Source of the DNA: a virus
Direction: 5' to 3' (one strand)
Length of the DNA: 44,975 nucleotides
UHGV virus genome: UHGV-0285350
This document shows, one piece after another, positions 1-3,603 of the stretch (positions are counted from its first letter, which is position 1; each line of letters opens with the position of its first letter). Position numbers and translations under genes: made by a program. The notes under the pieces were generated by a model. The model worked only from the letters and a program-made list of their open reading frames with translations. It was not told the origin of the DNA and did not search any database.

Positions 1-374
1 ATATCACCACCATCTTCTGTACTTATGACGCCGACACCTTAAGCAAAGATCCGGCAGATGGTCGTAAAGTGAAAGGTGTTATCCACTGGGTGAGCGCGGC
101 ACATGCGCTGCCGGTTGAAATCCGCTTGTACGATCGTCTGTTCAGCGTGCCGAACCCAGGTGCTGCGGATGATTTCCTGTCGGTGATTAACCCGGAATCG
201 CTGGTGATCAAACAGGGCTTTGCTGAACCGTCTCTGAAAGACGCGGTAGCGGGTAAAGCATTCCAGTTTGAGCGTGAAGGTTATTTCTGCCTCGACAGCC
301 GCCATTCTACGGCGGAAAAACCGGTATTTAACCGCACCGTTGGGCTGCGTGATACCTGGGCGAAGTTAGGTTAA
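1..374 (+). CDS. glnS: glutaminyl-tRNA synthetase, C-terminal fragment (5' end outside window)
   Basis: Translation ...[100 protein letters not shown] matches the conserved enterobacterial GlnS C-terminus as I recall it; frame open to window start, stop TAA 372-374. Confidence 0.9.
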
Positions 375-400
375 TAGGTATTTCGCCACATAAAAAAGTA

Positions 401-426
401 AACGCCGCTACTGCGGCGTTTTTTAC
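401..426. terminator. rho-independent hairpin terminator, usable in both directions (glnS on +, Dam-type gene on -)
   Basis: aacgccgc-tact-gcggcgtt stem-loop followed by tttttt on + strand; on - strand the same hairpin is followed by ctttttt after a 3-nt gap; lies between two convergent stop codons (374 and 423). Confidence 0.6.
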
Positions 427-1328
427 TTCATTATTGCAATTATATCGTTAGCAACTACACGTGTTGACGCCTTGCAGGAAACCGACCGTCTGGCTGCCAT
501 ATGATGTACTTTAAACCCGTTTCCTTCATATAGTTCACGGATGTTTGGCGCACCACTATTTGTTATCACTACCTTAGCGCCGCGCTGGTGGGCTTCCACC
601 AATAGAGATACCAGCCGTTTCTGTTCGTCGAAACGGAAGCTATTTCCTGAATAACTGGTAAACCCTTCTGTATCCGGCAGCGGTTCATACGGCGGATCGC
701 AAAAAATCACATCGCCTTCACCAGCCGCCTCGATGACGCCAGCAAAGTCACCTGATACAAAGGACGTGTTTTTGAGTACGTCATCAGCCAAAAATGCCTC
801 CATCTCTGCATGTGGGAAGTAGGGCGCTTTGTATTTGCCATACCCCACGTTGAACTCGCCATTTTGGTTGTACCGCGTTACGCCATTAAAACAGTGCCGA
901 TTAAGGTACAAAAAGGCGGCAGCATGATGTAGCTGGTCATACTTTCCTCTGTTAAATGCCTCACGCACTTCGAGGTAAGCGTCAGCGTTGTTGTAATTTT
1001 TGAAAAAACTATATGACAGCGTGACGAGCGAATGTCCTTCTCGCTGCAATGTCTGATAGAAGTTAATCAGGTCACCGTTAATATCATTAAGCAGGTTGTG
1101 GCGAAATCCTGCATTCGTAAATACGGAACCGCCACCAACGAATGGTTCTATTAACCGCTTACCGTGTGGTAGATGCTCAAGCACTGTAGGCAATTCTGAG
1201 AATTTACCACCTACCCATTTGAATATCGGACGCTCATATTCATCCGGAGTCCGAATGGTGCGCATATAGCTAATTTCAGCCATCGTATCCTGTTTTTTTA
1301 TGGCTATGCTTGCTATAGATTTACTCAT
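423..1328 (-). CDS. DNA adenine (N6) methyltransferase, Dam / D12 class
   Basis: Translation has FKWVGGK (Dam KWAGGK-type SAM motif) near N-terminus and DPPY catalytic motif; start placed at internal ATG (MSKSIAS...) preceded by AGGGGGTG SD; track ORF extends to 1424 but overlaps the upstream gene. Confidence 0.85.
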   Translation of the reverse strand: MSKSIASIAIKKQDTMAEISYMRTIRTPDEYERPIFKWVGGKFSELPTVLEHLPHGKRLIEPFVGGGSVFTNAGFRHNLLNDINGDLINFYQTLQREGHSLVTLSYSFFKNYNNADAYLEVREAFNRGKYDQLHHAAAFLYLNRHCFNGVTRYNQNGEFNVGYGKYKAPYFPHAEMEAFLADDVLKNTSFVSGDFAGVIEAAGEGDVIFCDPPYEPLPDTEGFTSYSGNSFRFDEQKRLVSLLVEAHQRGAKVVITNSGAPNIRELYEGNGFKVHHMAARRSVSCKASTRVVANDIIAIMK

Positions 1329-2001
1329 AGAGCACCCCCTTATTCGCTTCGAAAACTGCCTTTGCGAATCCATGTGGAGTAGCACTTCGAAAATTAGCCC
1401 TGTCAGGCCCTGGTGGCGCGGCATGGATTCTGTTATCTGGCTTGCCTAATGATTCGTCCATTAGGGCATCAGGCATGACAAAGCCCTGGCCGCTCCAGAG
1501 GCATGTTTTTTTGGTGTAGTTATCTTCCTGACAATATGCAGTGAAGAAGTAAGGGTGAAAGATGTGATCTGGCTTACGCCAGAATGTCGATATTTTGCTG
1601 ACCGGATTTTCAATCATGTACGGACAACCGATCATCTTTGCAATGTCATAACACTGCCAGACAACCTGCATTGCTTTGAACTGGAAAACCGGATCTTTAT
1701 TAGCCTTGTCCGAAAACCAGCGCGCGCCGGAAACAGCCAGGTCAGTACACGGTGGGAACCCGGCCAGAAACACGATGCGCTGCAAATTCTTACGGAGAAA
1801 AGCGTATACTTCATCGCTATCGATGATCGCACTAATACGCGTCAGAACGGCACCTGATTGCATCAGCTCGTCACTGGTCGATAAGTGCTGTGGATCGACG
1901 ATAGCGGCATCGACACCGTATTCCAGCCAGGGGGCAACCATTGCCCCCGTAAAATCACAAAGACTCACAACAAGCGGTCGGTTATTATCGTTCTGCTTCA
2001 C
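1321..2001 (-). CDS. short C5-cytosine-methyltransferase-like protein (motif IV PC and motif VI ENx present; no target-recognition domain; motif I degenerate)
   Basis: [15 protein letters not shown] resembles C5-MTase motif IV (GFPCQxFSxxG) with catalytic Pro-Cys; YMIENPVS resembles motif VI (ENV) about 40 aa later; only about 226 aa. Start uncertain (GTG near 2001 after GGAGG, or ATG near 1941); overlaps rdgC 3' end. Confidence 0.45.
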
Positions 2002-2890
2002 CGCCAATGGCCTCCACCAGCGCGTTAAACAGTGCAGATAATTCGCCCGTAAAGAGCACGAAATCAGCATCAAATCGTTGTGCTACATCCTCCCGGTCGA
2101 TATCGTCGTTCTGGTCATAGAGATCATCACAGAATGTCAGGGCTTTGATACTCATATCATCGTTGACTCTGAACGACGCGCGGTCCATCCAGTTAATTGC
2201 AACGGTCGTAGCTACTTTCCCCGCCTCAATGTGAGACATAATCTCGTCGGACTGTAGATCAACTTTGTTGCAGCGAACGGCACCACCATTATCGAGCAGA
2301 CCCTTTAATGTGGCGTCTTCACCTGCTGTAAATCCGGCAGGGAAGCCGTTTTTAAACCACTCGGTCATTGTAATTTCCAGCGGTTCGCGTGGTGTGAATG
2401 GAATGACAGGCAGGCTGCCGAGCGATTTTCGCAATAAAGCCAGCTGGTCCTCTGCCTTTTTGGCGCTGCTTGCCTCAACGAATACCAGATGGTTGCTGCG
2501 GTCGATCAGGATTTTGGCGAGTGATTTTCTCGTGAAAGCACGAGGAAGAAGAGAGTGAAGCACTTCATCCTTCAGCGAATCTTTTTCGGTCTTCTTCAGC
2601 TTTCTGTCTTGCTCTTCTTCAAGTGTCAGGATTTTTTTCTGTAACTCTTCTTTGAGCACTTGAGAAGGTAGGATTTTTTCCTCTCGTTTATGCTGTATCA
2701 GAAGAAAACCCTGGTATTCATGGGTGAGGTTGTCACCAAGAACGGAGGTCCAACCAGCTTTAGCCATATCCTGAGAACCGCATGGGGTAAACACAAACTT
2801 GCTAAGGGCTGCATTTACTTCTGCAGTATCCCAGCTAACTTCGCGTGAAAGACGATAGATGAAGATATTTTTGAAAGCGACTGATCTCAT
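1985..2890 (-). CDS. rdgC: recombination-associated protein RdgC homologue
   Basis: Full-length similarity to my recollection of enterobacterial RdgC ([14 protein letters not shown]..., [15 protein letters not shown]..., [58 protein letters not shown]); ATG preceded by GGTGAG SD. Confidence 0.85.
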
Positions 2891-2949: not shown

Positions 2950-3603
2950 CTATCCTTTCTTGAAATCGAAGTTGCCAGCAGTGGCCTGAAAGGTTCCTCC
3001 TGCCTTGAAAGCTATGTCTCCGTTAGCGGTGACAGCAATATTTTCCCCTTTAACATTGATGTTGTTGGTTGATTTGACGTTAACACTCCCTCCTGCATTC
3101 ACGATTACATCAGCCGGACCAATGATATATATCTGCCCGGACTCATTCATGCCAATCCTTGAGCCTGCTGCCGTATTGGCAATTTCATAGCCGCCACCAG
3201 CAGTTCGTACTTCAAGAATATTGTTGCGGTGAATAACGAAGTCTTTCGTTGCTGAGATTTGGGGGCGGGGAGGTGCTCCATCTACTTCCGGCGGCGTCCA
3301 GCCGTTGCCTTTGCCAGATGCTTCTGGTGCAACGTTTGGAATTCCTCCCGGTGCATCCTGAGCGGCACCAACTATCATTGGGCGTCTGGTGTCTATTCGA
3401 CCGTTAACATCTAAATAAGGAAACTCTACCCAGACCAGGTCACCTTTGACTGTGGGTACAAAAGCGTTTCCGATGGGTAACAGGTATTCCGCCCAGGGTA
3501 GATCGTCATCAGGAACGCCATTCCAGTCAGGTAAAACACGGACTTGAGCACGCATAAGCCCTGCCGGGTGCACAGTTCCAACAATTTGCGCTCTACGCTT
3601 CAT
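2950..3603 (-). CDS. gpV / gp5-type baseplate spike protein (OB-fold N-domain plus Gly/Asn-rich beta-helix-like C-region)
   Basis: N-terminus IVGTVHPAGLMRAQVRVLPDWNGVPDDDLPWAEYLLPIGNAFVPTVKGDLVWVEF fits the phage baseplate-assembly-V OB-fold pattern; C-terminal repeats (IVNAGGSVNVKSTNNINVKGENIAVTANGDIAFKAGG). Confidence 0.6.
   Translation of the reverse strand: MKRRAQIVGTVHPAGLMRAQVRVLPDWNGVPDDDLPWAEYLLPIGNAFVPTVKGDLVWVEFPYLDVNGRIDTRRPMIVGAAQDAPGGIPNVAPEASGKGNGWTPPEVDGAPPRPQISATKDFVIHRNNILEVRTAGGGYEIANTAAGSRIGMNESGQIYIIGPADVIVNAGGSVNVKSTNNINVKGENIAVTANGDIAFKAGGTFQATAGNFDFKKG

Follow-up and report, generated by a model that had tools for sequence, protein, structure and literature searches.

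The window analyzed here, a stretch of 44,975 nucleotides in full, is a P1-like plasmid prophage of the phage D6 type, and it raises the question of what is encoded by a short gene lying between those for RdgC and a Dam-type methyltransferase. The original prediction described its product as a protein of about 226 residues that keeps a Pro-Cys loop and an ENx motif, has CDFTGAM where FxGxGG is expected and is devoid of a target-recognition domain (TRD). Three options had been left open: an unusually compact cytosine methyltransferase, an inactive methyltransferase-derived DNA binder, or an enzyme performing other chemistry at the cytosine ring.

The gene and its neighbours

The gene and the elements flanking it are as follows.

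400..421, no strand assigned: bidirectional terminator-like hairpin between convergent glnS and dam
423..1328, minus strand: Dam-type N6-adenine methyltransferase CDS, start ATG 1328-1326 (the longest open reading frame reaches 1424)
1321..2001, minus strand: short C5-methyltransferase-like CDS (= D6 orf64), 226 codons plus stop, with a GTG start and a TAA stop at 1321-1323
1985..2890, minus strand: rdgC CDS, equivalent to P1 hrdC, its last 17 nt overlapping the start of the short methyltransferase gene
2011..2015, minus strand: Shine-Dalgarno GGAGG within the rdgC 3' end, read from the sequence

Both the size of the protein and its placement between, and overlapping, dam and rdgC were as predicted, the overlaps amounting to 8 nt at the dam start (ATGAGTAA) and 17 nt at the rdgC end. 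The GTG start codon (2001-1999) follows the GGAGG at 2015-2011 after a spacer of 9 nt. Two alternative starts, a TTG at 2073 giving a longer protein and Met21 giving a shorter one, were rejected, as they did not fit the N-termini of homologues, 5-8 residues ahead of the 'SLCD' strand. The hairpin at 400..421 is likely the end of an rdgC-methyltransferase-dam transcript. A chance reading frame was rejected on the basis of conservation across homologues: the protein shares 99.1% identity with orf64 of phage D6, annotated as "putative DNA-cytosine methylase", 88 complete E. coli genomes have the gene on a plasmid some 90 kb in size, and its family comprises at least 2,600 protein clusters (2,607) at 50% identity, so the frame at 1321..2001 is real.

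Catalytic motifs and their conservation

The following segments were recognized in the protein, all encoded on the minus strand.

1939..1965: motif I region, residues 13-21 (S-L-C-D-F-T-G-A-M), a non-canonical SAM loop
1726..1758: motif IV, residues 82-92, with the codon of the catalytic Cys85 at 1747-1749
1597..1617: motif VI, residues 129-135 (M-I-E-N-P-V-S), with invariant E131
1489..1524: motif VIII equivalent, residues 160-171, aligning with DNMT3A R790-A-R792-Y-F-W-G
1390..1488: variable loop at the TRD position, residues 172-204, of 'RIH' type, pLDDT about 70
1342..1389: conserved C-terminal R-S-x-T-P-x-G-F-A-x-A-V-F-x-A-N element and helix, residues 205-220

Conservation was counted in the query together with 127 diverse representatives, 34-52% identical to it (128 sequences). 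The nucleophile of the P84-C85 loop is kept in 127 of the 128 sequences, while in the E131-N132-P133 motif both E131 and P133 are present in all 128 and N132 in 122. The Cys-to-Glu distance (C85 to E131) is 46 residues, identical to that between C710 and E756 of DNMT3A and compared with 38 in M.HhaI, which agrees with the C5-methyltransferase spacing claimed at the outset. Loss of these two motifs among homologues had been named as an outcome that would tell against the original prediction; since Pro-Cys and ENP are conserved family-wide, it stands on this point.

The remaining motifs depart from the textbook pattern. The F-x-G-x-G of motif I is absent and C15-D-F-T-G19-A-M is found in its place, G19 being the sole conserved glycine (101/128); the family consensus, S-L-[F/C/Y]-D-x-[T/S]-G-x-M, is near the S-L-F-D-G-I-A-T-G of DNMT3A. 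D36 is kept in 123/128. Instead of the Q-x-R-x-R of motif VIII, the protein has Y-T-K-K-T, in which K164 (125/128) and the invariant T166 align with R790 and R792 of DNMT3A; at position 165, Lys was counted 61 times and Arg 28 times among the 128 sequences. A canonical TRD is indeed missing, motif VIII and the C-terminal motif being separated by 41 residues, versus 109 in M.HhaI and 100 in DNMT3A; the position is, however, not empty, but occupied by the 33-residue loop 172-204, the most variable stretch of the short family. The C-terminal R-S-x-T-P helix can be equated with motif X (or a fused IX/X) by position only, and local hhalign runs intended to place it as motif IX or X were without signal. 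Homologous inteins (E 4e-38) were found directly before the catalytic cysteine in one short-family member and in one canonical P1-type C5 methyltransferase.

Fold and remote homology

Structure prediction, suggested with the original prediction as a check, yielded an AlphaFold model (pLDDT 86.5) with a class I Rossmann-type fold, for which the nearest structures were DNMT3A/3B and prophage C5-methyltransferases; FtsJ-like RNA methyltransferases were also close structural neighbours. The family profile matched the DNMT3A catalytic domain with E-values of 1.4e-4 (local) and 5.6e-5 (global), motifs I, IV, VI and VIII being in register. Comparison with M.HhaI by hhalign, either alone or in a small C5 alignment, was not significant (probability about 1%), though the motifs lined up (the M.HhaI and DNMT3A sequences used were identical to the PDB chains). 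Searches of PDB sequences with the single protein and two family profiles gave nothing significant, the best hit being DNMT2 (E 0.99), with motifs I-IV correctly aligned.

Neither Pfam nor NCBIfam yielded a match for the window protein, PF00145 being absent even at E <= 1. It was nevertheless the only Pfam family weakly matched by several relatives (8/111, all sub-threshold, best E 0.004), and since its gathering threshold was not reached, the short protein is, by profile, a remote relative and not a member of PF00145. A clear assignment came from phrog_757, 'DNA methyltransferase' (E 4.4e-78, residues 2-224). With this match and that to DNMT3A, placement in a non-methyltransferase family, the other outcome that was to speak against the original prediction, did not materialize.

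The likeness to DNMT3A/3B comprises the S-L-F-D of motif I, the 46-residue PC-to-ENV spacing and the best structural match. Furthermore, the F-W-G-N-L-P-G-M of DNMT3A parallels the segment right after motif VIII in the window protein, and G890-R891-S892 provides an R-S pair in the C-terminal motif, as in the window protein. DNMT3 differs in that its motif VIII arginines are retained and its motifs VIII and X lie about 100 residues apart, compared with 41, and the identity is only 11-15%. The TRD of DNMT3 is, to our knowledge, the smallest among well-studied C5 methyltransferases, and DNMT3 functions in oligomeric form, assisted by regulatory domains and partners. With canonical type II enzymes (M.HhaI, E. 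coli Dcm; PF00145) the window protein shares the motif order I-IV-VI-VIII-X, the Pro-Cys nucleophile, the ENx glutamate and the Rossmann-type fold, whereas FxGxG, QxRxR and GN are all replaced, and the 109 residues between motifs VIII and IX of M.HhaI contrast with the 33-residue loop.

Two more specific assignments were rejected. An orthologue of E. coli Dcm or another EcoRII-type CCWGG enzyme would not fit the lack of an NCBIfam or Pfam match and of a TRD. In split C5 methyltransferases (e.g., M.AquI), a second polypeptide supplies the TRD and motifs IX-X; such a partner gene is lacking, the short gene being flanked by rdgC and dam here and by unrelated small genes in other phages, and the modelled domain is complete, C-terminal helix included.

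Homology to an active enzyme of phage K42

The "Dcm" of phage K42 (236 aa, 711-bp dcm) triggers retron Ec86/Eco1 (Wang et al., bioRxiv 10.1101/2023.08.16.553469; also published as Cell Rep 2024;43:114857, as cited in PMC12640716). It raised 5-methylcytosine (5mC) on msDNA, as determined by LC-MS, while a C82A/E128A/K175A/K176A mutant did not, and, expressed alone in E. coli, it sufficed for both msDNA methylation and retron triggering (10.1101/2023.08.16.553469). The CCWGG site in that study was assumed from the host Dcm and not mapped (10.1101/2023.08.16.553469), and nothing supports the CCWGG specificity that the 'Dcm' label implies.

We compared the K42 enzyme through the near-identical Bas06_0055 (phage Bas06, KarlJaspers, BASEL), encoded by a gene of equal length in a genome 95% identical to that of K42, which has the four mutated residues at those same positions. 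Bas06_0055 belongs to phrog_757 (E 6e-86), the PHROG shared with the window protein, and BLASTP aligned the two over residues 8-220 of the 226 (37% identity, E 6e-41). K42 C82, E128, K175 and K176 correspond to C85, E131, K164 and K165 of the window protein, all four being conserved, and both proteins carry PPCTDLA, IENPV, (Y/F)-x-K-K-T-C-L-W and the C-terminal R-S-x-T-P-x-G-F-A helix. They differ in motif I, where K42/Bas06 has a canonical-looking F-D-G-S-G and the window protein C-D-F-T-G, and in a 14-residue insertion before motif VIII that is present in K42/Bas06 and absent from the window protein. The loop at the TRD position is also of another type, 'PDNRIH...PPGPDRAN' ('RIH') in the window protein versus 'WAKTGGKSSRTK' ('GGK') in K42/Bas06; a shared loop type would presumably mean shared specificity, but the loop types of this pair differ. 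K42 is, moreover, a lytic phage of the Drexlerviridae in which the gene stands alone, whereas in the window the phage is a plasmid prophage and the gene is coupled to both rdgC and dam.

Since the K42 homologue makes 5mC in vivo and needs the equivalent Cys, Glu and Lys-Lys residues, the compact methyltransferase is favoured among the options of the original prediction, in line with the register of the DNMT3A profile match. The gene thus probably encodes a compact stand-alone SAM-dependent DNA C5-methyltransferase of a phage 'short Dcm-like' family (PHROG 757), and the D6-type protein is probably active as such. It is a known and fairly ordinary kind of enzyme that is under-annotated: a D6 annotation exists, and one family member has been published with 5mC formation.

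Relationship to P1 Dmt and Dam

In phage P1, another P1-type phage-plasmid, the same slot right after the rdgC homologue hrdC is filled by Dmt, a canonical C5 methyltransferase fused to Dam (bifunctional C5-cytosine/Dam enzyme). The P1 C5 module is different from the short protein, being about 490 aa long, belonging to PF00145 and having a large TRD, a QRRRR motif VIII and a GNS motif X; no similarity between the two was detectable (hhalign of the family profile against the N-terminal module of P1 Dmt, probability 0.2%). The relationship is one of module replacement and not of orthology. A homologue search seeded with P1 Dmt retrieved only close P1-type Dmt proteins, including intein-containing and module-swapped variants, a set too narrow to serve for a broad C5 profile. 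The short domain does occur in a natural fusion with Dam, in P0121; a 72-aa reading-frame fragment upstream of that fusion was considered as RdgC and rejected.

This arrangement bears on the possibility that the protein is an active C5 methyltransferase that is not autonomous on double-stranded DNA, and is either targeted by a partner such as Dam or directed at single-stranded or hairpin DNA or at RNA. The missing canonical TRD, the translational coupling to dam, the natural Dam fusion and the adjacency to rdgC-type genes in D6, P1 and Serratia phage JS26 would all suit such a mode of action, as would the single-stranded DNA hairpin that is the sole demonstrated substrate (retron msDNA) and the structural closeness of FtsJ-like RNA methyltransferases. 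Nonetheless, we consider it unlikely: in Drexlerviridae and Phapecoctavirus the short gene is surrounded by unrelated small genes only, dam lying elsewhere or being absent from the vicinity, K42 Dcm needed no phage partner in E. coli, and the PC and ENP chemistry together with the DNMT3-like fold points to DNA cytosine.

Inactive binder or other chemistry

The two other options of the original prediction are both disfavoured for the D6-type subfamily. A dead methyltransferase-derived protein, that is, a subfamily that does not bind SAM and serves as a DNA-binding or cytosine-flipping factor, for instance modulating Dam, RdgC or replication, would account for the C-D-F-T-G motif I with a bulky Phe at the expected first Gly, for the loss of the motif VIII arginines and for a TRD-position loop unlike that of the tested K42 enzyme. 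We regard it as very unlikely, given that the nucleophilic Cys, the ENP Glu, Asp36 and Lys164 are near-absolute across thousands of clusters, as expected of an enzyme, that the odd features of motifs I and VIII are common to most of the family (the active K42 Dcm also has K-K-T), and that an intein is located at the catalytic Cys. The same fold and covalent C6 attack serving to transfer another group from another cofactor (e.g., carboxymethyl from Cx-SAM, as in phage CmoX) or some other C5 reaction is highly improbable, since K42 Dcm gave a clear rise in 5mC, the R-S pair of motif X is also found in DNMT3A, a normal methyltransferase, similarity to CmoX is no greater than ordinary C5-methyltransferase similarity, and the genes next to the short one, in D6 and in four other phages examined, include none for cmoA, a ligase, TET or a glycosyltransferase.

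Proposed mechanism and target recognition

For the compact C5 methyltransferase, the following mechanism can be proposed, in which SAM binding and the roles of single residues are inferred. The protein, with one catalytic domain of Rossmann type, would use Cys85 (Pro-Cys loop) to attack a flipped-out cytosine at C6 and Glu131 (ENP) to protonate it at N3, while Lys164/Lys165 would replace the arginines usual in motif VIII. SAM would donate the methyl group and be bound by an S-L-x-D loop resembling that of DNMT3, by Asp36 and by the R-S-x-T-P helix at the C-terminus, and the variable 33-residue loop 172-204 would substitute for the TRD. In the D6-type plasmid prophage the gene is translationally coupled, with rdgC upstream and dam downstream. 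As to expression timing and biological role, the enzyme would most likely modify phage DNA jointly with Dam during lytic growth, because the same slot houses the full-size C5 module of Dmt in P1.

Literature searches found no mapped recognition motif for the PHROG 757 short family. We suggest, tentatively and with the odds clearly against it, that these proteins may be natural minimal 5mC writers, in which recognition by a variable loop of 30-40 residues is either very relaxed (one or two bases) or dependent on structure (single-stranded, hairpin or replication-fork DNA), the targets of the 'RIH' and 'GGK' types being different. M.EcoGII is a non-specific adenine methyltransferase, and the D6 enzyme would then be its cytosine counterpart. 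The suggestion would also explain why Ec86 is triggered by the phage enzyme and not by the host Dcm in dcm+ cells, and if recognition is very relaxed, the D6-type enzyme would be a useful compact tool for writing 5mC.

Distribution and annotation of the short family

The family is represented in 1,575 of 50,697 phage genome records, or about 3%, and nearly all of the best 150 representatives are about 200-290 aa long, i.e., of single-domain size, like the 226-residue window protein. In E. coli plasmid prophages the RefSeq label is 'hypothetical protein'. Because of this label and the lack of a Pfam or NCBIfam model, predictions of phage and plasmid methylomes overlook these short C5 methyltransferases. 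Finally, as one short-family member is a sensed trigger of retron Ec86/Eco1, phage-plasmids of the D6 type, widespread among E. coli and Salmonella, may be visible to this retron.

Genomic context of the short methyltransferase gene

The window is a D6-type, P1-like plasmid prophage: Escherichia phage D6 (MF356679 / NC_050154) matched its first 21.6 kb with 98.4% identity, starting from D6 position 61213, and 88 complete E. coli genomes contain the 2.7-kb stretch with the gene, on plasmids of roughly 90 kb. The gene and its neighbours are as follows:

400-421, bidirectional hairpin shared with the convergent, phage-borne glnS
423-1328, Dam-family methyltransferase (PF02086, E 2e-56; TIGR00571, E 7e-74)
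1321-2001, minus strand, short methyltransferase ORF (226 aa)
1985-2890, rdgC (Pfam RdgC, E 6e-103)

The short methyltransferase gene starts 17 nt within the 3' end of rdgC, at a GTG that follows GGAGG after a 9-nt spacer, and its TAA stop overlaps the dam ATG in the sequence ATGAGTAA, so that the three genes are translationally coupled. Their transcript probably ends at the 400-421 hairpin. This GC-rich element, with a 9-bp stem and T-runs on both strands, lies between glnS and the convergent dam, and window positions 1-374 correspond to the 3' end of the glutaminyl-tRNA synthetase gene of the phage-plasmid (D6 orf62). In its longest form the dam ORF begins at ATG 1424 (333 aa, 423-1424) and would run about 100 nt into the short methyltransferase gene; the D6 annotation, like the ATGAGTAA junction, speaks for a start at 1328 (301 aa). 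Between rdgC and a baseplate gene (2950-3603, minus strand) lies a 59-nt gap, most of which is taken up by an 18-nt inverted repeat (2897-2940; arms 2897-2914 and 2923-2940, 14 nt perfect). This repeat is unique in the window and overlaps a weak promoter-like match. Since no T-run follows the repeat, it looks more operator-like than terminator-like.

Annotation and spread of the family

D6 orf64, 99.1% identical to the 226-aa protein, was labelled "putative DNA-cytosine methylase" by its depositors, and the RefSeq pipeline calls the same gene in E. coli plasmids "hypothetical protein". Pfam and NCBIfam scans of the protein gave no match, and PDB sequence searches with the protein and with family profiles were negative. 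In PHROGs, the protein was assigned over its full length to phrog_757, "DNA methyltransferase" (E 4e-78). The family was detected by tblastn in 1,575 of 50,697 phage records, mainly from phages of Escherichia, Klebsiella and Salmonella, and also of Vibrio, Campylobacter and Flavobacterium. A profile search of 1.84 billion representatives returned 2,607 clusters at 50% identity (E <= 1e-3), and nearly all of the best 150 of these 2,607 are about 200-290 aa long. This very common phage family is without a curated profile. Distantly similar short "cytosine methyltransferases" (about 210-220 aa) are present in Tetraselmis virus 1 and Lactococcus phage P087. In BFVD, the short methyltransferase fold is found inside two uncultured-phage proteins of 1,126 and 1,397 aa (A0A6J5NPY6 and A0A6J5SE15), the longer of which is named "Helicase/UvrB, N-terminal".

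Relation to C5 methyltransferases

The motifs described in the original prediction are all present in the protein: C15-D-F-T-G19-A-M replacing FxGxG, P84-C85, and E131-N132-P133, with the C-terminus 57 residues past the strand that follows motif VIII. That prediction had made its methyltransferase reading depend on the PC and ENx motifs being shared by homologues, and both proved to be conserved in 127 diverse representatives with 34-52% identity to the protein, so the reading survives.

Conservation of selected residues (number of sequences out of 128)
C85 (putative nucleophile): 127
E131: 128
P133: 128
N132: 122
K164: 125
T166: 124
W169: 127
D36: 123
R205: 119
P209: 124

A confident AlphaFold2 model (49 homologues; pLDDT 86.5, pTM 0.86) predicts a Rossmann-type domain of alternating strands and helices with a long helix at the C-terminal end. 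When the family profile was compared using hhalign with the catalytic domain of DNMT3A, the sequence of which was checked and is identical to the PDB chains, E values of 1.4e-4 (local) and 5.6e-5 (global) were obtained, with four segments in register.

Segments aligned between the family and DNMT3A
Motif I: family v-l-S-L-f-D; DNMT3A V-L-S-L-F-D-G
Motif IV: family P-P-C-T-D-L; DNMT3A S-P-C-N-D-L
Motif VI: family E-N-P-V; DNMT3A E-N-V-V
Motif VIII and after: family K-K-T-C-L-W-t-G; DNMT3A R-A-R-Y-F-W-G-N

In both DNMT3A and the short protein, the Cys and the Glu lie 46 residues apart. PF00145 was the sole Pfam family weakly matched by several members (8 of 111, best E 0.004). The protein thus belongs among the remote, DNMT3-like relatives of C5 methyltransferases and not within PF00145. 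In contrast to canonical enzymes, the protein has a single glycine in motif I, Y-T-K-K-T instead of Q-x-R-x-R in motif VIII, and only 41 residues between motif VIII and the C-terminal motif, compared with 109 in M.HhaI and 100 in DNMT3A.

A tested homologue, phage K42 Dcm

Wang et al. (bioRxiv 10.1101/2023.08.16.553469; published as Cell Rep 2024;43:114857, as listed among the references of PMC12640716) obtained phage K42 escapers of retron Ec86. K42 shares 95.4% identity with BASEL phage Bas06, and each of the four escapers mapped to a 711-bp "dcm" gene. Expressed alone, this gene was toxic to retron-carrying cells only; LC-MS revealed high 5mC on retron msDNA with wild-type K42 Dcm, whereas the C82A/E128A/K175A/K176A mutant gave no such signal, and the authors modelled the enzyme on DNMT3A (bioRxiv 10.1101/2023.08.16.553469). 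We found that Bas06_0055, the 711-bp Bas06 counterpart annotated as "Dcm-like C5 cytosine methyltransferase", has C, E, K and K at positions 82, 128, 175 and 176, falls in the same PHROG (E 6e-86), and shares 37% identity with the short protein over its whole length (E 6e-41), the mutated residues corresponding to C85, E131, K164 and K165. Therefore, besides the putative annotation already given in D6, the family has one published member with direct experimental evidence of C5-methyltransferase activity.

The CCWGG specificity of K42 Dcm was taken from the host Dcm and not from mapped sites; its sole support is the loss of defence in msDNA stem mutants, and the assays were performed in strain MG1655 (bioRxiv 10.1101/2023.08.16.553469). 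In MG1655, taken here to be dcm+, the host Dcm evidently leaves the retron untriggered, and we infer that the K42 enzyme may have a target different from, or broader than, CCWGG.

The tested enzyme and the short protein differ in the places most relevant to the original concern, which limits how far the K42 result carries over: K42/Bas06 has a canonical-looking F-D-G-S-G in motif I instead of C-D-F-T-G, a 14-residue insertion before motif VIII, and, in the position of the target-recognition domain (TRD), a "GGK"-type loop (...WAKTGGKSSRTK...) instead of the "RIH" type. It is in this loop that the family varies: of the 91 representatives in which every motif could be recognised, 31 had the "RIH" type, 26 "GGK" and 34 another, with a median length of about 35 residues and insertions up to about 75. 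The loop is the obvious candidate for target recognition.

Inteins, fusions and module exchange

Inteins tend to sit in active sites. In the short family, a 548-aa member (P0219) has a 332-aa intein that splits the Pro from the Cys of its PC motif, which fits this preference; at exactly the equivalent site, a canonical P1-type Dmt C5 methyltransferase (P0366) contains one of 341 aa. The two inteins are homologous (31% identity, E 4e-38) and tie the PC motifs of both types together; their host proteins are without detectable sequence similarity. In P1, the slot downstream of hrdC, an rdgC homologue, is filled by Dmt, in which Dam is joined to a canonical C5 module (about 490 aa), whereas in D6 the short protein takes this slot, ahead of a separate Dam. 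Furthermore, a 563-aa protein (P0121, L014:218-1909) is a natural single-chain fusion of a short C5-like domain with Dam, and in P0383 a D6-type Dam is fused instead to a canonical C5 module of 490 aa. Among P1/D6-like elements, the cytosine module ahead of Dam thus appears exchangeable between the long type and the short one, which argues for their functional equivalence.

Proposed function

We consider it quite probable that the protein is a stand-alone, SAM-dependent DNA C5 methyltransferase, made with RdgC and Dam and modifying phage DNA. It would use the classical covalent mechanism, in which Cys85 attacks C6, Glu131 protonates N3 and the methyl group comes from SAM, with lysines in place of the arginines of motif VIII. 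In this 226-residue protein, which has no TRD, whatever sequence recognition exists would come from the short variable loop. That members of the family are minimal 5mC writers, very relaxed or structure-specific, seems rather unlikely.

That the enzyme needs a partner, or acts on a non-duplex substrate, is improbable, as K42 Dcm was sufficient by itself (bioRxiv 10.1101/2023.08.16.553469) and, in Drexlerviridae and Phapecoctavirus, the gene is found on its own. Slightly less probable again is that a protein with such conserved motifs is a dead enzyme or a pure DNA binder. It is very improbable that some other group, such as the carboxymethyl of Cx-SAM, is transferred: a single active-site Arg can switch cofactor preference, according to the CmoX paper, but the R-S of motif X also occurs in DNMT3A, a normal methyltransferase.

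For the proposed methyltransferase, a role in phage DNA modification is likely, and since the P1 dmt operon is annotated as being under C1 repressor control, the D6 gene would, by analogy, probably be expressed during lytic development. In the unrelated Serratia phage JS26 (Casjensviridae; L007, 3495-5349), a short methyltransferase gene adjoins an "exonuclease recombination-associated" gene, the PHROG name matched by RdgC, a pairing that echoes that of rdgC and methyltransferase in D6 and P1.
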